Origin: Promethearchaeota archaeon
GTDB taxonomy: Archaea > Asgardarchaeota > Lokiarchaeia > Sigyniarchaeales > SOKP01
Reading direction: 5' to 3'
Length of the DNA: 25,478 nt
Assembly: GCA_048940445.1 (NCBI GenBank)
Contig: JBHLON010000040.1
Coordinates: forward strand, 2,347-27,824
The position numbers and the translations under genes are program-made. The notes below the pieces were generated by a model, which saw only the letters and a list, made by a program, of their open reading frames with translations, searched no databases and was not told where the DNA came from. The first letter of the stretch is position 1. Every line of letters begins with the position of its first letter. Shown in pieces: positions 3 to 19,407 of the stretch.

Positions 3-2312
3 CCTCAAATTATATCCCAGATTTTATACCAAGCTGAAACAGGAAAAATTCCTGTATCTGGTGCGGGGTATGGAGGATCTTTTGCAGGAGAGGGATTTGA
101 TGCTATATGGTTCGATATGTCGGAAATTGTACGTCCTACAAGGGATGGAATCCACGGGAGAGAATACATTTCCACGAATATTGAATTAGGTCGAAAAGCA
201 TTGAATTTAAAGTTTGGTAATGAGAAAAAACTTTTGAAAGAACGCCCAACTCTACTAAAACTTCCTTTCCCTATTATTTTTAATCCAATTCCTTTAATAT
301 CACAAGATAATAAAAAAATCAAATCTATTGTTTCAGTAGCATATTCGTTAGGTACAATTGCGATTGTTCCTCAATCAGACTTTTCAGAAGATTTGTTACC
401 ATTTTCTAAGGCTGTTTGTTTAAGACTCAATAGTAAACCTAATCAATTGGAAAAGAAGTTGATTCAAAAAGCAAAAATTGTTGAAATTGAAGATTTTTCT
501 CTAATGAAAACGGTAAAGAAAAGTAATCCTGATATTTTATGTTCAATTTTTCTTCATGTAGATGAGGGGATTGAAAATAAAGTCTTTTCTCTAACTAAGA
601 GTGGAATGGACATTATTCACTTGAGCTTTGATTTTTATGGAAAAAGTAAAGCGGGAGACATTCCAACTGTTTTAAAAAAAATTCATGATTTTCTCATTGA
701 AAAAAAGTGTCGAAATTCTGTTAGCATTATAGTTAGTGGTGGTATAGCAGCTGCAGAACATGTTGCAAAAGCTATGATATGTGGAGCTGATTGTGTTGCA
801 ATAGATTATGTATTATTAATTGCTCTCGGATGTTCATTATGGGCTGATTTATCTTTTCCGTGTGTAGCTGAGCATGGTAAGATTGATTTGAAATGGGCTA
901 TTAATAGATTAGAAAATCTAATAGCAGCTTGGAGGGATCAACTTCTTGAAGTTCTTGGTGCTATGGGAATTAGAGAAATTAGGAGAATTAGAGGAGAAGT
1001 CGGGAGGGCAATTTTTTATCAAGAAGAGAAAGACAAATTTAGAAATCTATTTGAATCAGTAAGCATAAATTCAAAATCAGGGTATTTAATCCCTGTTGAA
1101 CAGTTAAGTGTTGGAGATTGTCGTTGGCCGCTCGAATTAATTCAAGCAACATTTGAGCAAGCACGTACAGGAATCATACCAAAACATCTTGAATATCGTG
1201 TAGGTAGAAGTGCAGGAGGATTTGATCGTCTTGCTTTTACTTTTGAAGAAAATGAAAAATATTTAAAAGATAATACATCGATAGATTTATCAATTTCCTT
1301 AAATTTGCGCTCTAAAGGACCAAGAATTGCTATTCCTATGCCAGTTTATTCAGGAGGAATGTCCTTTGGTTCGGTTTCCTTGAATGTGATGCTTGCACGA
1401 GCAATGGCAGCTCAAACAATTGATTCTTTTATGTCTACGGGGGAAGGTGGTTATCCGCAAGATTTAATACCTTATAAAGAACATGTTATAACTCAAGTTG
1501 CTACTGGCTTATTTGGTGTGAGTGAAGCTTCAATTCAAAGAGCTCCAATTATAGAATTTAAATATGCTCAAGGAGCAAAACCTGGTTTAGGAGGTCATTT
1601 ACTTGCAGGAAAAGTAACTGAAACTGTTGCTAATGCTAGAGAATCAGTAGCAGGTATAAGTCTATTTTCACCATTTCCTTTCCATAGTGTTTATTCAGTT
1701 GAAGATCATAAGAAACATATTGATTGGATTAAACAGGTAAATCCAGAAGCTCTAGTAATTGTTAAGGTTTCAACGCCTACAGATGTAGATATGGTTGCAG
1801 TTGGTAGTTATTATGCTGGTGCTAATATTGTAAACATTGATGGATCATATGGTGGAACAGGTGCGGCTCCAGAAGTAAGTAAAAAAAATATAGCAATGCC
1901 AATAGAATATGCAATCCCAAAAGTTCATAACTTTCTCATAAAAGAAGGAATAAGAGACGAAATTGTCCTTATTGCATCTGGAGGAATACGTACTGGATAC
2001 GATATTGCTAAAGCGATTGCTTTAGGAGCAGATGGTGCAATGGTAGGTACCGCAGATCTAGTAGCATTAGGATGCGAAAGACTTGCGGTTTGTGAAAAAG
2101 GAGACGGATGTCCTGCAGGTATTACTACAACAAATCCTAAATTTGCTTCCTTAATTGATCCTCAATGGGGTAAAGAACGCATAATAAATCTTCGAAAAGC
2201 ATGGGCTATTCAATTACGCCAAATATTAAACGCCCTTGGAATGAAAACTATAAGGGATTTAAGAGGTAGGACTGATACACTATTCTATTTAGACAAGAAG
2301 GTGAAATTATGA
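3..2312 (+). CDS. Glutamate synthase FMN-binding (GltB2-type) protein with two tandem synthase-like domains; 5' end lies outside the window
   Basis: The frame is open from base 3 (PQIISQILYQAETGKIPVSGAGYGG...FDAIWFD then MSEIVRPTRDG), so ATG 117 is internal. Domain 2 (~1110-2312) has MSFGS, STGEGG, QVATGLFG, KYAQGAKPGLGGHL, SPFPFHS, DGSYGGTGAAP, SGGIRTG, LGADG and a C-x5-C-x5-C cluster motif. Domain 1 keeps SGGI..AKA..GAD and the C-terminal LGAMGIRE helix. Confidence 0.9.
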   Translation, partial: PQIISQILYQAETGKIPVSGAGYGGSFAGEGFDAIWFDMSEIVRPTRDGIHGREYISTNIELGRKALNLKFGNEKKLLKERPTLLKLPFPIIFNPIPLISQDNKKIKSIVSVAYSLGTIAIVPQSDFSEDLLPFSKAVCLRLNSKPNQLEKKLIQKAKIVEIEDFSLMKTVKKSNPDILCSIFLHVDEGIENKVFSLTKSGMDIIHLSFDFYGKSKAGDIPTVLKKIHDFLIEKKCRNSVSIIVSGGIAAAEHVAKAMICGADCVAIDYVLLIALGCSLWADLSFPCVAEHGKIDLKWAINRLENLIAAWRDQLLEVLGAMGIREIRRIRGEVGRAIFYQEEKDKFRNLFESVSINSKSGYLIPVEQLSVGDCRWPLELIQATFEQARTGIIPKHLEYRVGRSAGGFDRLAFTFEENEKYLKDNTSIDLSISLNLRSKGPRIAIPMPVYSGGMSFGSVSLNVMLARAMAAQTIDSFMSTGEGGYPQDLIPYKEHVITQVATGLFGVSEASIQRAPIIEFKYAQGAKPGLGGHLLAGKVTETVANARESVAGISLFSPFPFHSVYSVEDHKKHIDWIKQVNPEALVIVKVSTPTDVDMVAVGSYYAGANIVNIDGSYGGTGAAPEVSKKNIAMPIEYAIPKVHNFLIKEGIRDEIVLIASGGIRTGYDIAKAIALGADGAMVGTADLVALGCERLAVCEKGDGCPAGITTTNPKFASLIDPQWGKERIINLRKAWAIQLRQILNALGMKTIRDLRGRTDTLFYLDKKVKL

Positions 2313-4744
2313 AAGTTATGAAAAAAGAAACTGAAGGCGGATGTGGAGTCGTTGGATTTTGTTCAACTGAAAAAATAGCAGGTAAGCATTTATTACCTCC
2401 ATGCATCCAAATGCATAATAGGGGAAATGGGAAAGGTGGAGGTATTATTGCCATGGGTTTAGAAGCTTCTCAGCTGAATGTCACAGAAGAGATTTTAAAA
2501 TCAAATTATTTGATTCAGATTGCTTACCTTAAACCTGAAATACGTGAAAGTGTAGAGCGTCAGTTTATTTTTAACAATTTTGATGTTTTTACTTATTACA
2601 AGATCAAAACTAAAAATCATAATTCAAGTAAGCTTGAAACAATTCCACCTGAAGTGTATAGATATTTTTGTCGTGTGAAGAAGCAAGTTCTAAAGAAATT
2701 CATGAAAAGTCATAATTTTAAATATCTAAATAAAGCTGAAGATGAGTTTGTGTTTCTCAATAGTTTTCAGATAAATAAAAAATTTTATAGTGAAGACAGT
2801 GCTCAAGAAGCATTTGTTTTATGTCATGGAAAAGATATGATTGTTTTTAAGATTGTGGGATATGCTGAAGAAGCAATTGAATATTACAATTTAATGGAAT
2901 TGAAAGCACATATTTGGGTAGGACATCAAAGATATCCTACCAGAGGAAGAGTCTGGCATCCAGGTGGGGCACACCCTTTTGTTGGATTAAAAGAAGCTTT
3001 AGTACATAACGGAGATTTTGCAAATTATCATTCCATCTGTGAATATCTTTATCAAAATGGAAGGGAACCATTGTTTTCAACTGACACTGAAGTAGCTGTA
3101 TTATTATTTGATCTATGGACAAGAATTTACGAATATCCATTAGAATATACAATTGAAGCATTTGCGCCTACGACAGAAAGAGACTTTACTATGCTTTCAA
3201 CTGAAAAACAACACATTTATCAACTTATTCAAAGTTATCATATCCAAAATTCTCCTGATGGTCCTTGGTTTTTTATTATTGCCAGAAATGATGATATGAA
3301 GGATCAATTCCAATTACTCGGTATAACTGATACATCTATGTTGAGACCACAAGTATTTGCTCTTCAGGAAAATGATGGAGTTAAAATTGGTATAATAGCT
3401 TCCGAGAAGCAAGCAATTGATTCTATTCTCTTAAGTATTTCTATGGAAGATGATAGATATTGTTCCGTTGCTGATTTATATTGGAATGCTCGTGGTGGTA
3501 GTTATACTGACGGAGGTGCTTTTTTATTTACTTTGAAGAAGAATAAATTATTTTGCACTGATAAGTTTGGTAAAAGAATAGAGATTCCAAAAAGAAGAGC
3601 TCTAAAGGTTAAAACATTTAAAAATTATCAATTCGATCCTGATTTTAATTCAATTATTAAGGATTTTGTTAGTATGGACTACGAGGAAGTATTAGGTTTT
3701 TTAAAATCTGCTGAACTTTATGCTAAAGAAGGTGATACTGAATTCAAAAAAACAATTAAACTTTTAACTAAATTAATTGATAGAGTGTATTCAATAGGAG
3801 AAAAAAAAAGGAGTAATCTTTTAGCGTTATATCATAAAACGTTATATGCAATCTTTCGTGGAATATCAATAGATTCAAGATTGTTTAAATTCTATAGTTT
3901 ACAATCTTCATCTATCCCTTTTCCCGATTCCAATAATCAATGTTTAATTATTGATAGTAAAGACTTTTCTTCAGAAGGATCTAAAAGCTTGGCTTCAATT
4001 TTAGTTAAGGCTTTTAACAATGGATGGTTGAATTTCATTTTGTTTGACCTTAAAGGACAGAGATTTTGCGGATGTGGTTTTGGGAATCATTCGAAACCAA
4101 TTAAAATTGAAGTATATGGTTCTCCAGGTGATTATTTAGGATCAGGTATAACTAATACTGAAGTTTTTGTACATTCTAATGGACAAGATCAATGGGGACA
4201 GATTATGAAATCAGGAAAACTTGTTATCTGTGGGGATGTAGGACAAACATTTCTTTATGGCGCTAAGGGGGGTACTTGTTATGTGAGAGGAAATGTAGCG
4301 GGAAGGGCTCTAATCAATGCAGTTGGGAATCCTCGTGCTATTATTAATGGAAGTTGTTTGGATTATTTAGCCGAATCTTTTATGGCAGGTGATGTTTTCC
4401 ATGATGGTGGATTTGTTATTTTGAATGGAATTAGGTTAAATATAGATGGTTTATTAGAAGAATATCCAGAACCATATCCAGGAGGAAATTTGTTTTCTTT
4501 AGCATCTGGAGGAGCCATTTATATTCGTGATCCATTCAAAAAAACATCAAAAAGTCAACTTAATGGAGGCTATTTTGCCCATTTTTCAGATCAAGATTGG
4601 GATCTCATTAAACCCTATCTACAAGAAAATGAGAGATTGTTTGGCATTAAAATCGATGACTTATTGTCTGTAAACAATCAAATAAAGTCTCCAAAAGAGG
4701 TATATAGAAAAATTGTTGTTGGAAGCACAGAGGTTTTAAAATGA
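2309..4744 (+). CDS. Glutamate synthase subunit: Ntn (class II) glutamine amidotransferase domain fused to a C-terminal GXGXG beta-helix domain (GltB1+GltB3)
   Basis: GCGVVG near the N-terminus, HNRGNGKGGG, GHQRYPT, AHPF, HNGDFANY, TDTE, DGPW, LRPQ. C-terminal GQRFCGCG, GDYLGSG, GDVGQTFLYGAKGG, GGAIYIR repeats. ATGA overlap with the upstream stop and a GGTGA SD. Confidence 0.9.
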   Translation: MKVMKKETEGGCGVVGFCSTEKIAGKHLLPPCIQMHNRGNGKGGGIIAMGLEASQLNVTEEILKSNYLIQIAYLKPEIRESVERQFIFNNFDVFTYYKIKTKNHNSSKLETIPPEVYRYFCRVKKQVLKKFMKSHNFKYLNKAEDEFVFLNSFQINKKFYSEDSAQEAFVLCHGKDMIVFKIVGYAEEAIEYYNLMELKAHIWVGHQRYPTRGRVWHPGGAHPFVGLKEALVHNGDFANYHSICEYLYQNGREPLFSTDTEVAVLLFDLWTRIYEYPLEYTIEAFAPTTERDFTMLSTEKQHIYQLIQSYHIQNSPDGPWFFIIARNDDMKDQFQLLGITDTSMLRPQVFALQENDGVKIGIIASEKQAIDSILLSISMEDDRYCSVADLYWNARGGSYTDGGAFLFTLKKNKLFCTDKFGKRIEIPKRRALKVKTFKNYQFDPDFNSIIKDFVSMDYEEVLGFLKSAELYAKEGDTEFKKTIKLLTKLIDRVYSIGEKKRSNLLALYHKTLYAIFRGISIDSRLFKFYSLQSSSIPFPDSNNQCLIIDSKDFSSEGSKSLASILVKAFNNGWLNFILFDLKGQRFCGCGFGNHSKPIKIEVYGSPGDYLGSGITNTEVFVHSNGQDQWGQIMKSGKLVICGDVGQTFLYGAKGGTCYVRGNVAGRALINAVGNPRAIINGSCLDYLAESFMAGDVFHDGGFVILNGIRLNIDGLLEEYPEPYPGGNLFSLASGGAIYIRDPFKKTSKSQLNGGYFAHFSDQDWDLIKPYLQENERLFGIKIDDLLSVNNQIKSPKEVYRKIVVGSTEVLK

Positions 4745-5532
4745 ATATAATGGTATGTTTAAAACAAGTTCCAGACACTGATGAAGTGAAAACTGATCCA
4801 GAAACGGGTCGAATTATTCGAGAGGGAATAGCTGGTACTATAAATCCTTTTGATATGTTTGTTCTTGAAGAAGCTCTACGATTAAAGGAAAAGTATGGGG
4901 GAAAAATTACTTTGCTGAGTATGGGACCAAAAGATGCTATCAACACTCTTTATTTTGGTCTAGCTTTGGGAGCTGATGAGGCATATTTACTATCAGATAT
5001 TAAATTTGCGGGATCGGACACATTAGCTACATCCTATGCACTTTCTTGTGGTATAAAAACACTTGGGTATTTTGATTTAATCATCTGCGGAATTAAAACT
5101 ACTGATGGTGATACTGGGCAAGTAGGGGCAAATTTAGCAGAAATCCTTGATATACCAAGTGTATATTATGTCAAAAATATACTGAATTATCAAAATTCCA
5201 AAATTGAAGTTGAGAGACTTTTAGAAGACAGAACCCAAATTTTACAAATCTCTCTACCATGTGTTATTTCAATTGTAAAGGGTGCGAATATGCCTCGAAT
5301 GCCTACATTAATTGGAAAAATTGAAGCTGAGAGAAAATTATTAAAAATTCTTAACGCTTCTGAAGTTAATGCTAAAGAAGATAATTGTGGACTTGAAGGA
5401 TCCCCTACCAGAGTCGTAAAAGTATTTCTTCCAGATAAAAGAAAACAAGGAGTAATTTTAAAAGGTTATTTTGATCGAAATATCAATAAATTAATAGAGT
5501 TTTTAAAGAGTAAGAAGATGGTGTCATCGTAA
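4741..5532 (+). CDS. etfB: Electron transfer flavoprotein beta subunit (EtfB/FixA family)
   Basis: CLKQVPDT, INPFD, SMGP, FAGSDTLATSYAL, DGDTGQVG, PRMP, GLEGSPTRV. ATGA overlap with the upstream gene. Confidence 0.95.
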   Translation: MNIMVCLKQVPDTDEVKTDPETGRIIREGIAGTINPFDMFVLEEALRLKEKYGGKITLLSMGPKDAINTLYFGLALGADEAYLLSDIKFAGSDTLATSYALSCGIKTLGYFDLIICGIKTTDGDTGQVGANLAEILDIPSVYYVKNILNYQNSKIEVERLLEDRTQILQISLPCVISIVKGANMPRMPTLIGKIEAERKLLKILNASEVNAKEDNCGLEGSPTRVVKVFLPDKRKQGVILKGYFDRNINKLIEFLKSKKMVSS

Positions 5533-6758
5533 TGATTCATATTGATCAGAACAAATGTATTGGATGTGGCGAGTGTGTTGATGCATGTATGTTTGGTTCT
5601 ATATCTCTTAAAGCTAATTTTCCTTCAATTTCAGAAGACTGTCGCTTATGTGGAGCATGTGCCAGAATTTGCCAATATAGTGCTATAATCATTAAACGAA
5701 AAAAAAAGAAGAAAATTATTGACTGGAAAGGTGTCCTCATTTTTGGAGAACAACGTGATGGAGAAATTTTAGAAGTTGTGTATGAATTGTTGAGTAAGGG
5801 TAAAGAATTAGCTGACAAACTTAATGAGTCTCTTTTATGCATTGTATTAGGAAATTCAGTGAAAAAAATTAATGATTTAAAATTTTATGGAGTAGATGAG
5901 ATACATTACTTTAATGATAATAATTTAGAGAGATTCAATTGTGAAATTTACTCAAAAATAATTTCTAGTTTCGTTAAAAGTATAAAACCAAGTATTTTTC
6001 TGATAGGTGCAACTTCCATTGGACGAGAATTAGGTCCTAGAATAGCTGCGAAACTTAAAACAGGATTAACTGCAGATTGTACTAGTCTAAAGATAAACAA
6101 GGAAAACTTATTGCTGCAAACTAGACCTGCATTTGGTGGAAATATAATGGCATCCATAATATGCCCATCTTCCAGACCTCAAATGGCTACTGTTCGCCCA
6201 AAAGTCATGAAAATAATGGAAAAAAAAATCGGAGGGGGAAGCTTAATCTATCATCAAGTAAATTCAGACTTATTGAAATCAAGAATTAAAATTTTAAGAG
6301 AATTAAAATTTGACAATCACCATAATATAGAAAATGCTGATATTATAGTTTCAGGAGGATTAGGAATAGGTAAAAAAGAAGGTTTTGTCTTATTACAAGA
6401 ACTTGCTGATGAATTAAATGGAGTGGTTGCTGCAAGTAGACCTGCGGTTGATGCTGGATGGGCAGATCCTACTGTTCAAGTTGGAATGTCTGGTAAAGTT
6501 GTACAACCTCATTTATATATTGCTTGTGGAATATCTGGAGCTATTCAACATCGAGTTGGTATGGAAACTTCCGATGTGATTGTTGCTATTAATAAAGACG
6601 AACGAGCTCCCATTTTTGATATTGCAGATTTTGGAATAGTAACTGATTTGTATGATTTTCTTCCAAAATTTATCCAAAATCTAAAAAAAACTAAAAATGA
6701 TGTTATTATTTCAAAAAACAAAATGGAGAATTTTATACCTTTACCTAACAACAAGTAG
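5532..6758 (+). CDS. etfA: Electron transfer flavoprotein alpha subunit with an N-terminal 2x[4Fe-4S] ferredoxin domain
   Basis: N-terminal CIGCGECVDAC and CRLCGACARIC. ETF alpha motifs TGLTADCT, RPAFGGN, PQMATVRP, SRPAVD, QVGMSG, GISGAIQH, AINKD. TAATG overlap with etfB. Confidence 0.95.
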   Translation: MIHIDQNKCIGCGECVDACMFGSISLKANFPSISEDCRLCGACARICQYSAIIIKRKKKKKIIDWKGVLIFGEQRDGEILEVVYELLSKGKELADKLNESLLCIVLGNSVKKINDLKFYGVDEIHYFNDNNLERFNCEIYSKIISSFVKSIKPSIFLIGATSIGRELGPRIAAKLKTGLTADCTSLKINKENLLLQTRPAFGGNIMASIICPSSRPQMATVRPKVMKIMEKKIGGGSLIYHQVNSDLLKSRIKILRELKFDNHHNIENADIIVSGGLGIGKKEGFVLLQELADELNGVVAASRPAVDAGWADPTVQVGMSGKVVQPHLYIACGISGAIQHRVGMETSDVIVAINKDERAPIFDIADFGIVTDLYDFLPKFIQNLKKTKNDVIISKNKMENFIPLPNNK

Positions 6759-6762
6759 TTAA

Positions 6763-6993
6763 TATATTTATCACTTAAGGTCAAAAAAAATGGAAAAGGA
6801 AGGTATTTTCGCATTACCAGGAAGCTTACAGCTAGTTTTAGATGAATTTAAGGAGTCAGACTCTATGAAAAAAGTATTTGGCGAACTTGCATTTAGGGAT
6901 TATGATTATACGAACCTTGAGGAATATGATAAATATTGAGTTGTTGTCAGTGAATGAGAAAGGGATCGTTATATAAAACGTTTATATATTTAA
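6763..6993 (+). pseudogene. glnA: Remnant of the glutamine synthetase (type I) C-terminus
   Basis: Manual translation: YIYHLRSKKMEKEGIFALPGSLQLVLDEFKESDSMKKVFGELAFRDYDYTNLEEYDKY*VVVSE*ERDRYIKRLYI*. This resembles the GlnA C-terminal pattern (NIYhl...GI..LP.SL..aLd.l.......lGe.........Ew..y...VseWE..rY). In-frame TGAs at 6937 and 6955; the N-terminal ~85% of the gene is absent. Confidence 0.75.
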
Positions 6994-7097: not shown

Positions 7098-7517
7098 ATG
7101 AGATTTTTATCTTTTCATTGTGAATATTTTAATTACAAAGCCACGAAAAGAAGTCGTTCGAAAATTTTTGAGGAGTTAACAGAAAGCAACAGAGAAGGTA
7201 GTCTAGAAGATCTTATTTTACTTTTTATAAGTGTTGAGAAAAAAGATGAAAGTAATTCTAAGTTGTTAAAGAGTGCTGTTAGCGAAATTGATAAAATAAT
7301 AGATCAAATAAAAGTATCCAATATTGTACTGTTATCATTTGCACATCTTTTTGGAGAATTAAGTAGTCCAGAATTTAGTTTAAAAGTTCTAAAAGAATTA
7401 GAAGATATTTTGAGAGACCGATATATTGTATTGAGACCCCCCTTTGGTTGGTTTAATGAATTAGAAATAAAGGCAAAAGGACATCCTTTATCAAGAATTT
7501 CAAGGAAGATTGAATAA
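7098..7517 (+). CDS. Stand-alone archaeal threonyl-tRNA synthetase editing domain (DTD-like fold, tRNA-Thr_ED family)
   Basis: MRxLxxH start, FISVEKxDE, FAHL, PFGW, KGHPLSRISR match the N-terminal editing domain of archaeal ThrRS. Only 139 aa, with no catalytic or anticodon-binding domain. Confidence 0.88.
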   Translation: MRFLSFHCEYFNYKATKRSRSKIFEELTESNREGSLEDLILLFISVEKKDESNSKLLKSAVSEIDKIIDQIKVSNIVLLSFAHLFGELSSPEFSLKVLKELEDILRDRYIVLRPPFGWFNELEIKAKGHPLSRISRKIE

Positions 7518-11445: not shown

Positions 11446-13089
11446 ATGATAAATAAAAAGCTGAAAATAGTCTTAGCCCAAATTAATCCTATAGTTGGAG
11501 ATTTAGAGCACAATACGAACAAAATTTGTTCTATAATAGAAAAACACCAAAACGCAGATATTATTATTTTCCCAGAAATGGTTCTTGTTGGATATCCTTT
11601 AATGGATCATATCTATGATCCCTTGATAAGATCACGAAATAAAAAAAGCATTGAAAAAATTAAGAATCTAGATTCTGAACCAGCAGTAATTTTCGGAACA
11701 TTTACAGAACCTGAAGAAATAAGAGATAAAATTCATCCATTTTATAATTCTGCAATAGTTATTAAAAATAAAGAAATAAAAGCTATAATAAATAAGCGTA
11801 TTCTACCAGATTATGATGTGTTTAACGAAAGAAGATACTTTACTTTTGATACTAACTATCAACCAACACATATCAATGGTTTAAAAGTTGGAATATTAAT
11901 TTGTGAAGATATTTGGGATGAAAATTATGACATTAAGGTGGCTAAACAATTAGTTGAAAATAAGGCTGAGATTTTAATTGTCATTAATGCTTCTCCATAC
12001 AATATAGACAAATTTGACATAAGAAAAAACCTTGTTTGTAAAAAAGCAAGAGAGTTTTTAGTTCCAATTGTATATGTAAATATGGTAGGTGGAATTGATG
12101 AAATCGTCTATGATGGTCAGAGTTTCATAGTAGATGAGAATGGAGAACTTATTTATAAGGCAAAAGCATTTCAAGAAGAAATAGCTGCTATAAACATATT
12201 TGATAGCGAACAGAAGAATATTAAGGATTATAGATTAGATTGGAGAGAAGAAGTACTTAGAGCTTTGAAATTAAATTTATATGACTATTATTATAAAAAT
12301 AAGATTTTTGATGGAGTGGTATTAGGTCTAAGTGGAGGTATAGATTCTGCTTTTACAGCATACGTATGTGCTAAGACTCTTGGTCCTGAGAAAGTTAATG
12401 CAATTATGCTCCCTACAAGGTTTACATCTCAAGAAAGCCTCAAACTTGCTGAGGATTTTTGTATGAATGTTAACATTAATTATAAAATCCATTATATTGA
12501 CGATTTGTTCGATTTATACCAAAAAAATATCGAAAGTAATGTTGGAAAATTAGAATTCGATATCGCTGATGAAAATCTTCAAGCAAGAATAAGAGCCACT
12601 ATTTTAATGTATTATTCCAACAAATTTAATTGGTTATTGATCTCAACCGGAAATAAATCCGAAATTGGAGTTGGCTATTGTACATTATACGGAGATACGA
12701 ATGGGGGGAAAAATATACCTGGAGATTTATTTAAAACCCAAATATATTCAATTTGTAAATGGATTAATACTAAAAACGAAGTAATTCCAAGAGGGATTAT
12801 AAGTCGCCCTCCAACAGCGGAGTTACGCGAGAATCAAAAAGACGAAGATTCATTACCTCCATACAAAATACTTGACATAATCTTAGAGGAAATTATAAAA
12901 CATGGAATTGGTTCTGAATTAGAACATATAAAAAGTAAAACTATTGACCAAGAAACAATTGATAAAGTGCGAAAATTGTATTTAAATTCAGAATATAAAA
13001 GAAGACAGTTAGTTCAAACAATAAAAGTTAGTGAGAGTGCTTTTGGAATAGGCAGAAAATATCCAGTTCTAAAAAGAATTAAGTTTTAA
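11446..13089 (+). CDS. nadE: Glutamine-dependent NAD+ synthetase
   Basis: N-terminal nitrilase-family glutaminase (FPE, K in NKRILP, ICED nucleophile) plus synthetase motifs GLSGGIDS, ENLQARIR, TGNKSE, GYCTLYGD, PPTAEL, EYKRRQ. Confidence 0.96.
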   Translation: MINKKLKIVLAQINPIVGDLEHNTNKICSIIEKHQNADIIIFPEMVLVGYPLMDHIYDPLIRSRNKKSIEKIKNLDSEPAVIFGTFTEPEEIRDKIHPFYNSAIVIKNKEIKAIINKRILPDYDVFNERRYFTFDTNYQPTHINGLKVGILICEDIWDENYDIKVAKQLVENKAEILIVINASPYNIDKFDIRKNLVCKKAREFLVPIVYVNMVGGIDEIVYDGQSFIVDENGELIYKAKAFQEEIAAINIFDSEQKNIKDYRLDWREEVLRALKLNLYDYYYKNKIFDGVVLGLSGGIDSAFTAYVCAKTLGPEKVNAIMLPTRFTSQESLKLAEDFCMNVNINYKIHYIDDLFDLYQKNIESNVGKLEFDIADENLQARIRATILMYYSNKFNWLLISTGNKSEIGVGYCTLYGDTNGGKNIPGDLFKTQIYSICKWINTKNEVIPRGIISRPPTAELRENQKDEDSLPPYKILDIILEEIIKHGIGSELEHIKSKTIDQETIDKVRKLYLNSEYKRRQLVQTIKVSESAFGIGRKYPVLKRIKF

Positions 13090-13093
13090 GTTA

Positions 13094-13651
13094 TTAACCT
13101 ATTATATCATTCTTTTCTATTAACCCTTCTTCCATAAGCATTAACTTTGCGATATTATCAAAAATATTATCAACGTTATCCCCAGTTTTAGATGAACATT
13201 CGAAATATCCCTGTAAATTGCTGGATCTTGCGGTTTCTATTCCCTCTTCTGTAGATATAGATCTATTATCTTCTAGATCTAATTTGCTTCCTACCATTAT
13301 TATAGGAATGTGTTTATTAGTTACTTCCATTTCATCTTTGAAAAAAGAGAGCCAATTATCAAGATTTTTAATACTGGTATACCTTGTGATATCAAACATA
13401 AATATTCCACCTTGCGCGTTTTTTACAAAGCTAGGAAAAAGTATTTTATAGCGTTCCTCTCCACCAAAATCCCAAATATGGAACCTAGCATTAACATTGT
13501 CAACAATTACATCTTTTACATAAAAATCTGTCCCAATAGTCATCTTAAGATCTTCATTAAAAACTCGGTTTAAATAACGATCAGTTAGGGATGTTTTACC
13601 AACCCCTCCATCTCCAAAGATACAGAGCTTAAGTTTTGTTTTTTCTGGCAT
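13094..13651 (-). CDS. Rab-like small GTPase (Ras superfamily)
   Basis: G1 GDGGVGKT, G2 TIGTDF, G3 WDFGGEERY, G4 GSKLD, G5 ECSSK. No C-terminal prenylation cysteines. Confidence 0.92.
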   Translation of the reverse strand: MPEKTKLKLCIFGDGGVGKTSLTDRYLNRVFNEDLKMTIGTDFYVKDVIVDNVNARFHIWDFGGEERYKILFPSFVKNAQGGIFMFDITRYTSIKNLDNWLSFFKDEMEVTNKHIPIIMVGSKLDLEDNRSISTEEGIETARSSNLQGYFECSSKTGDNVDNIFDNIAKLMLMEEGLIEKNDIIG

Positions 13652-18888: not shown

Positions 18889-19407
18889 CTATTGATCTGA
18901 TGTAATCACATAGTTCACTAGGCTTTCAAAAGCGATTTCTACATTTAATCCACTTTTAGCAGATGTTTTTATATAATCGATCATTCCAAGCTGCTCTTGT
19001 GTTTTTTTTGCATAAATGTCTGCCACCATAGAAAATTCTTCCAAATCACATTTTGCAGCAATTAATGCAATTGGTAGGTTTTGATAATACTTTTTTACAA
19101 GTTGTACCCACTTTCTGATGTTTACAAAACTAGTCATGTTAGTTATATCAAAAAGCACTAACGCCCCACTTGCACCCCTCATATATTTATCTATCATAAA
19201 GCGAAATCTTTCCTGACCAGATATGTCCCAAAAAATTAGCTGGCACATTTTAGAATCTATTTCGATTTGCTTTGTAAGAAATTCTACTCCGATTGTCATT
19301 GTTGTTGTATCGAAAAACCTTCCTTCAACGTATCTATGCAAAAGTGTAGTTTTACCAACGCCTCCATCTCCAAGAATGATAAATTTAAAACTTAGGAATT
19401 TTCTCAT
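18889..19407 (-). CDS. Rab-like small GTPase (Ras superfamily)
   Basis: GDGGVGKT, TIGVEF, WDISGQERFR, YMRGA, VLFDIT, AKCD, TSAK; RabF-like motifs present. No C-terminal Cys. Confidence 0.92.
   Translation of the reverse strand: MRKFLSFKFIILGDGGVGKTTLLHRYVEGRFFDTTTMTIGVEFLTKQIEIDSKMCQLIFWDISGQERFRFMIDKYMRGASGALVLFDITNMTSFVNIRKWVQLVKKYYQNLPIALIAAKCDLEEFSMVADIYAKKTQEQLGMIDYIKTSAKSGLNVEIAFESLVNYVITSDQ

Follow-up and report, generated by a model that had tools for sequence, protein, structure and literature searches.

A split glutamate synthase encoded with a bifurcating-type electron transfer flavoprotein in Lokiarchaeia: a candidate electron-bifurcating route of nitrogen assimilation

Glutamate synthases are known to receive their electrons from ferredoxin or from a GltD-type NAD(P)H subunit, and the partners described for bifurcating electron transfer flavoproteins (ETFs) are acyl-CoA, pyruvate/lactate and quinone (PMC8097209, PMC6085437, PMC13689815), with crotonyl-CoA, pyruvate and quinone serving as the example EtfAB acceptors in a 2026 paper (PMC13689815). 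A 25,478-nucleotide stretch of DNA from a Promethearchaeota archaeon, referred to here as the window (G000:C82:2347-27824, with relatives in the Promethearchaeota/Lokiarchaeia), opens with four forward-strand genes in which the two systems meet: a glutamate synthase split over two genes, followed by EtfB and by an EtfA fused to a ferredoxin domain (Table 1). The question raised by this locus is whether the synthase is the redox partner of the ETF and, if so, how electrons would pass between them. The cassette is real and conserved and, as judged from its sequence, is a new combination of two known kinds, namely, a glutamate synthase and a bifurcating-type ETF; that the ETF acts as the electron donor of the synthase is considered very probable.

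Conservation of the synthase-ETF cassette

The synthase type of the window was detected in 10 of 161 Lokiarchaeia genomes, in every one of which etfB and a ferredoxin-fused etfA lie directly downstream. The adjacency of synthase and ETF is not due to chance, because it is kept in all ten of these genomes. When approached from the ETF side, the EtfB orthologues (E <= 1.6e-89) among 400 Asgard genomes belonged to the same ten genomes as the synthase sublineage and were always adjacent to it, the next EtfB matches in that set sharing approximately 45% identity, and no cassette-type ETF was found apart from the synthase. The four-gene order was also present in two further assemblies, in one Altiarchaeota genome and one other archaeon, and in two genomes of the Thermoplasmatota (the phylum of the Methanomassiliicoccales), such that synteny is conserved across three or more archaeal lineages. 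It persists between unrelated flanks at identities as low as 54% for GATase and 48% for ETF, with junctions that mostly overlap or span fewer than 30 nucleotides, and the divergences of ETF and synthase track each other (Spearman 0.86 and 0.92, for pairs which are not independent). The flanking genes glnA and nadE come and go, glnA being located directly upstream of the cassette in six genomes. Bacterial occurrence is under-sampled, as the contig scan with a single-protein query returned mainly close relatives.

No GltD, whether in the operon or fused, was found in the window, upstream of it or at any cassette, and no lactate dehydrogenase (Ldh), acyl-CoA dehydrogenase or FixCX gene is conserved at any cassette. 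The open reading frame list of the window likewise holds none of these four, in agreement with the preliminary description. Upstream of the operon, glnA (C82:587-1936) and a 135-amino-acid open reading frame with a Cys motif were found, neither of which is a redox partner, and neither gltD nor a dehydrogenase gene nor any other conventional ETF partner is present there; the synthase is the sole redox enzyme co-encoded with this ETF. The earlier proposal that glutamate synthase is the putative ETF partner is strengthened by this conserved synteny and by the absence of an upstream partner.

The encoded synthase and ETF

The reading frames, their junctions (ATGA at 2309, ATGA at 4741, and TAATG sharing position 5532, as read directly) and their Pfam matches bear out the earlier assignment of synthase modules, EtfB and ferredoxin-fused EtfA to four overlap-joined genes. 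The first gene product matches Glu_synthase (PF01645; E 5.5e-106, 355 bits) and Glu_syn_central, the second GATase_6 and GXGXG, the third ETF, and the fourth Fer4, ETF and ETF_alpha, with the central and GXGXG domains scoring above cut-off (PF04898 and PF01493). As judged from its sequence, the two-gene synthase is intact: the motifs EGGCG, HNRG, HNGD and TDTE are kept in 13/13 ETF-linked GATase copies and HQRYPT in 12/13, the synthase loop of the flavin mononucleotide (FMN) subunit aligns with that of A. brasilense GltB, as do its three [3Fe-4S] cysteines, and glutamate synthases are the top fold matches of an AlphaFold model (pLDDT 81). Conversion of glutamine and 2-oxoglutarate (2-OG) to two glutamates is accordingly a predicted activity assigned from motifs and fold, with the adjacency of glnA as context. 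This is the only PF01645 synthase locus detected in the genome, which also encodes three glutamate-dehydrogenase-family paralogues.

All four modules are shared with GltBD (A. brasilense, PDB 1EA0/6S6S; B. subtilis, 7MFM) and the ferredoxin-dependent enzyme Fd-GOGAT (Synechocystis, 1OFD), as are the [3Fe-4S] ligands, the synthase loop and the glutaminase motifs, and these enzymes supply the top fold matches. In contrast to them, the synthase described here occupies two genes in permuted order (FMN part first, GATase fused to GXGXG), scores 231 bits against a GltB equivalog cut-off of 1047 bits, and has an ETF attached but no GltD. It belongs to a large split family, in which 7762 GATase-GXGXG homologues passed E <= 1e-100 out of 8000 scored. 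Most relatives have the FMN part distributed over two genes, each with ferredoxin-type clusters, whereas here these genes are fused and both ferredoxin inserts are deleted.

The genome holds three EtfAB pairs with 43 to 47% identity, namely, that of the cassette, one located between two acyl-CoA dehydrogenase genes on contig C4, and an orphan on C101; the acyl-CoA-dehydrogenase-linked ETF is, therefore, a separate paralogue (43% identity to the cassette ETF). Assignment of the cassette ETF to the two-flavin adenine dinucleotide (two-FAD), bifurcating clade is supported by PDB match scores, on which its closeness to characterized types rests, as the EtfB trees do not include the characterized proteins: the best structural matches of EtfB, all bifurcating (LctB, CarD, and the EtfBs of C. 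difficile, A. fermentans and T. maritima), reach 165 to 210 bits, as opposed to 57 to 75 bits for canonical ETFs. The best structural match of EtfA is CarE (378 bits), its 2[4Fe-4S] domain included. Mutants of LctBCD have established that the b-FAD motif DGDT-x-Q, an EtfA arginine, the SPT motif and the ferredoxin domain are each needed for bifurcation (PMC9232219), and all of these are present in the cassette ETF. Position 5 of the b-FAD signature is Gly, as in 11% of bifurcating ETFs, canonical ETFs having DDDSNQ instead (PMC8958531). The SPT anchor of the EtfB arm (S221-P222-T223) is invariant across cassette ETFs, as is EtfA R198, the arginine at the b-FAD N5 (LctC R205), which is also conserved in canonical ETFs.

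Although the preliminary description had noted FixA-like segments in EtfB, the protein is nearer to LctB and CarD, and its sister clade is Ldh linked. LctBCD (Ldh-EtfAB) of Acetobacterium woodii (PDB 7QH2) supplies the best EtfB structural match (210 bits) and shares a ferredoxin-fused EtfA, a low-potential partner and a similar a-FAD loop (LctC QIGLSG versus QVGMSG here), while differing in having an FAD dehydrogenase rather than an FMN/[3Fe-4S] glutamate synthase as its partner and one cluster rather than two in EtfA; the probable direction also differs, being bifurcation here. Caffeyl-CoA reductase CarCDE (6FAH) and Bcd-EtfAB (5OL2, 4KPU) have the 2[4Fe-4S] domain and all b-FAD signatures in common with the cassette, which, unlike them, lacks an acyl-CoA dehydrogenase in its operon, faces a lower acceptor potential and would use an Fe-S cluster as entry cofactor. 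FixABCX/EtfABCX (7KOE) is likewise built on a two-FAD ETF, and its transfer from a-FAD to FixX is a precedent for donation to Fe-S (PMC9232219), but the similarity is below that to LctB or CarD (165 bits) and no FixC, FixX or quinone is involved here. By its defining partners, the cassette is not GltBD, Bcd-Etf, LctBCD or FixABCX; it resembles what would be a glutamine synthetase (GS)-coupled glutamate synthase with a Lct/Car-type ETF front end.

The cassette clade groups in the EtfB trees with a sister clade that has the same xK(T/S)xDGDT variant. The two sampled members of this sister clade both reside in LctBCD-like etfB-etfA-LctD/GlcD operons and share xK(T/S)xDGDT and QVG[LM]SG with the cassette; Leu or Met followed by Ser in the a-FAD loop is common to cassette EtfAs, these two EtfAs and LctC, Bcd/Car types having Gln-Thr. 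Judging from these two neighbors, the cassette apparently recruited its ETF from an LctBCD-type lineage that had adapted to a partner of low potential. A second synthase-ETF form exists in two Asgard genomes of other families, G298 and G397, in which an Fe-S-bearing three-gene synthase is joined to an EtfB of another kind and to an EtfA that lacks the ferredoxin domain. This architecture lies at L186:2967-10604 and L187:6088-13427, and its EtfB carries DGNT instead of DGDT. The nearest synthase relatives of G298 and G397 are without that ETF. On the synthase tree, ETF linkage must have been gained or lost at least twice, while an approximately unbiased (AU) test on the EtfB data does not reject a single clade of synthase-linked ETFs (p 0.48). 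Synthases have possibly recruited ETFs repeatedly.

Elsewhere in the family, other modules take the place of the ETF, which was found at 0/80 metagenomic loci of the wider family, some of them short. Recurring neighbors at these 80 loci were MvhD (25), MetF (20), a GlcD-like FAD-oxidase-FeS protein (18), NfnL- or HdrA-like proteins (17), NfnS-like proteins (11) and HdrBC (9-10), so that the modules of relatives comprise NfnSL, HdrABC/MvhD/MetVF, FAD-oxidase-FeS, or none. Within the short flanks fetched, no ETF was present at the other 15 Asgard matches, in 26/28 Thermoplasmatota genomes or in 11 genomes of the Acidobacteriota phylum, nor was a cassette-type ETF found in trans in five genomes with ETF-less synthases (best identity, 44%). 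The split synthase family thus has the appearance of a chassis whose redox modules are exchangeable, with the ETF as one such module. A rule by which Fe-S loss was caused by ETF gain was considered and rejected, Fe-S-less forms without an ETF being common.

Several arrangements within the family were recorded in their own right. In many anaerobes (L141, L142, L143 and 15 more loci), the gene of the GlcD-like FAD-binding/Fe-S protein immediately precedes the split synthase; this protein possibly provides a 2-hydroxyacid-driven electron input and weakly matches the D-2-hydroxyglutarate dehydrogenase YdiJ. At L068, L098, L110, L113, L128, L129 and L131, an FAD-oxidase-FeS gene upstream is combined with an NfnSL-like pair downstream, and in the split synthase of other Asgard lineages (L190-L198) neither of the two FMN-part genes has canonical ferredoxin motifs, and no redox gene adjoins them.

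Electron flow and competing explanations

The cassette would be best explained as an assimilatory (GS-GOGAT) synthase with a dedicated two-FAD EtfAB as the input module replacing GltD. NADH-driven bifurcation, with the synthase and ferredoxin (Fd) as acceptors, is tentatively proposed, with confidence a little below the midpoint. In such a scheme NADH would reduce b-FAD, one electron would be passed via the a-FAD shuttle to the synthase's [3Fe-4S] center and FMN, and the other would travel via the EtfA 2[4Fe-4S] domain to free ferredoxin, the net reaction being 2 NADH + Gln + 2-OG + 2 Fd(ox) -> 2 Glu + 2 NAD+ + 2 Fd(red). With textbook inputs of -130 mV for 2-OG + ammonium/Glu and -14 kJ/mol for glutamine hydrolysis, the acceptor couple is computed at approximately -56 mV and the standard free energy of bifurcation at -16 to -32 kJ per 2 NADH, at standard NADH potential. 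The earlier suggestion that this exergonic reaction could drive ferredoxin reduction is thus permitted by the overall energetics, but not eased by the entry step into the synthase cofactors, which runs uphill at published potentials.

That step is one of several observations which weigh against bifurcation. The A. brasilense synthase has its [3Fe-4S] cluster at -280 mV (-190 mV with 2-OG) and its FMN at approximately -270 mV with 2-OG (PMC8097209), and an example a-FAD lies at -61/-182 mV at pH 8 (PMC8958531); at these published potentials transfer from a-FAD to the synthase is uphill, and retuning would be needed because the synthase cofactors (-190 to -280 mV) are below typical a-FAD potentials. 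At an NADH potential of -280 mV and an Fd potential of -500 mV, moreover, the margin shrinks to approximately -1 kJ. The terminal Pro of the b-FAD signature is replaced by Ala, and in the NAD-site motif RxFxG, whose Phe and Gly are kept, Arg87 is Ile in the window and Ile, Lys or Ser in its sublineage, with Arg in deeper members. GltD-domain and Nfn proteins are encoded elsewhere in the genome. Finally, the Fe-S-less fused FMN subunit occurs in many (Chloroflexota-like) bacteria with no adjacent donor, such that the ETF is dispensable for the synthase chassis, which presumably can use a free carrier. The uphill step is mitigated by precedent: LctBCD accommodates a partner near -190 mV by retuning, and in FixX an Fe-S center accepts electrons from a-FAD (PMC9232219). 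An origin in the LctBCD-type lineage, serving a partner of -190 mV, would help a-FAD to reach the synthase. Modeling of the FMN barrel as a complex with both ETF subunits (score 0.00, mark 0.32) counts neither for nor against the proposal.

That uphill step would be eased if the ETF replaced GltD without energy conservation, both NADH electrons entering the synthase and no free ferredoxin being reduced, an explanation which is rated as somewhat unlikely. One electron might then travel via a-FAD and the other through the ferredoxin domain fused to EtfA, docked on the [3Fe-4S] cluster, a route to which the same restrained expectation applies. In known synthases the electrons indeed arrive by way of [4Fe-4S] clusters of low potential, in GltD or in ferredoxin (PMC8097209). 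Both ferredoxin inserts are gone from the ETF-linked FMN subunit while two clusters are present in EtfA, the converse being seen in G298 and G397, where the synthase keeps its Fe-S domains and EtfA is ferredoxin-less. Fe-S loss in ETF-less synthases leaves this complementarity suggestive, however; the coupling signatures (Arg198, SPT and the b-FAD zipper) are invariant across cassette ETFs, and the fused domain of CarE and LctC relays to external ferredoxin (PMC9232219). The low-potential branch could alternatively serve a ferredoxin-dependent synthase, as FixABCX supplies a neighboring low-potential consumer (PMC5861303), the high-potential sink (an acyl-CoA dehydrogenase or an LctD-like protein) being encoded elsewhere. 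The synthase has only FMN and [3Fe-4S], as do plant and cyanobacterial Fd-GOGATs, and the genome contains 11 full matches to acyl-CoA dehydrogenase, along with several homologues of FAD-oxidases and roughly a dozen small ferredoxin-like open reading frames. This arrangement is nevertheless improbable, since characterized bifurcating ETFs are encoded beside their high-potential partner (PMC6085437), none of the cassettes has such a partner gene conserved nearby, and the ETF never stands apart from the synthase among the Asgard genomes.

It is also quite improbable that the genes are co-transferred or co-regulated neighbors without direct electron transfer. The patchy occurrence in Lokiarchaeia fits block transfer, a single clade of close relatives makes up much of the sample, and a single origin of synthase-linked ETFs is compatible with the AU test; yet across Asgard, Altiarchaeota and Thermoplasmatota the cassette and its translational coupling are kept to approximately 50% identity with variable flanks, and no ETF orthologue survives without the synthase. 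As for operation in reverse, which the preliminary description had allowed for, glutamate would be converted to 2-OG and ammonia at the synthase site and, together with reduced ferredoxin, would reduce NAD+ as in LctBCD. Full reversal to glutamine is not feasible. The descent of the ETF from an LctBCD-like lineage favors this catabolic confurcation, LctBCD being mainly confurcating (PMC9232219), but the upstream glnA in six genomes, the three glutamate-dehydrogenase-family genes, and the invariant glutaminase subunit with its catalytic Cys (which would be dispensable in that role) render it highly improbable. The first electron-bifurcating glutamate synthase, whose ETF would have been retuned from the lactate dehydrogenase lineage as one of several interchangeable front ends of the widespread, uncharacterized split-GOGAT family, possibly recruited more than once, is put forward as a proposal which falls just short of being probable.

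Locus organization and biological meaning

TABLE 1 Features of the cassette (window positions)
Feature	Position	Strand	Remarks
Glutamate synthase FMN subunit	3..2312	+	5'-open in the window; central-like barrel fused to FMN synthase barrel; no 4Fe-4S ferredoxin inserts; full length 821 aa
[3Fe-4S] ligand motif C-x5-C-x5-C	2073..2111	+	Corresponds to the cluster ligands of GltB; present in every ETF-linked copy
Glutamate synthase GATase (Ntn, PurF-type) + GXGXG subunit	2309..4744	+	811 aa; Cys12 nucleophile after EGG; HNRG, HQRYPT, HNGD, TDTE
EtfB, assigned to two-FAD (bifurcating) clade, LctB/CarD-like	4741..5532	+	263 aa
NAD-site motif RxFxG, here IKFAG	4999..5013	+	Arg87 -> Ile
b-FAD signature DGDTGQVGA	5104..5130	+	Reference DGDTAQVGP
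EtfA with N-terminal 2[4Fe-4S] ferredoxin domain (CarE architecture)	5532..6758	+	408 aa; bifurcation Arg198; a-FAD Arg303; a-FAD loop QVGMSG
Degenerate glnA 3'-end copy	6766..6978	+	Directly after etfA; 63% amino acid (aa) identity across 71 aa; interrupted by two in-frame stops

The first reading frame was correctly identified as the FMN module, but its extent requires revision, as the true start of the gene is at C82:2016, upstream of the window. A scaffold gap within the gene (C82:2170-2346), composed of 100 N and a 77-nucleotide duplicated overlap, ends just before window base 1 and inflates the gene to 880 codons; its removal yields the orthologue length. A public contig joins across the gap exactly, skipping 177 bases (the sequencing run is possibly the source sample). 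Because of the gap and duplicated overlap, the database product is truncated at 769 amino acids (P0245). That a frameshift or fusion marks the gene's 5' end was rejected, the effect being an assembly-gap artifact. A promoter/terminator scan of the locus gave the same result as shuffled background, the sigma-70 patterns used being unsuited to an archaeon.

The cassette is bracketed by glnA and the glnA remnant (72% nucleotide identity to the upstream glnA), possibly a rearrangement scar; relatives carry nadE at the position of the remnant, and in this genome nadE is located at 11446-13089. A stand-alone archaeal threonyl-tRNA synthetase editing domain (PF08915) is encoded at 7098-7517 (+), and, as read from sequence, two Rab/Ras-like small GTPases, typical of Asgard genomes, lie at 13094-13651 and 18889-19407 (-) around an arsC-phoU-pstBACS cluster. 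On another contig (G000:C84:373-3979, - strand), an NfnS-like gene is followed by that of a 911-amino-acid protein that combines a GltD/NfnL-type domain with a long extension.

A search of titles and abstracts, with most subscription journals outside its reach, returned no relevant paper on an ETF-coupled or bifurcating glutamate synthase, consistent with the earlier statement that no such complex is known to have been characterized. If the proposal is true, the main route by which nitrogen enters amino acids would gain a new class of electron donor, and ETF bifurcation a new class of acceptor; as the four proteins of the cassette are soluble and co-expressible, the idea is directly testable. 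Energy would be recovered from a biosynthetic step usually counted as pure cost, which matters for energy-starved sediment archaea, in which nitrogen assimilation may run on NADH while recharging ferredoxin.

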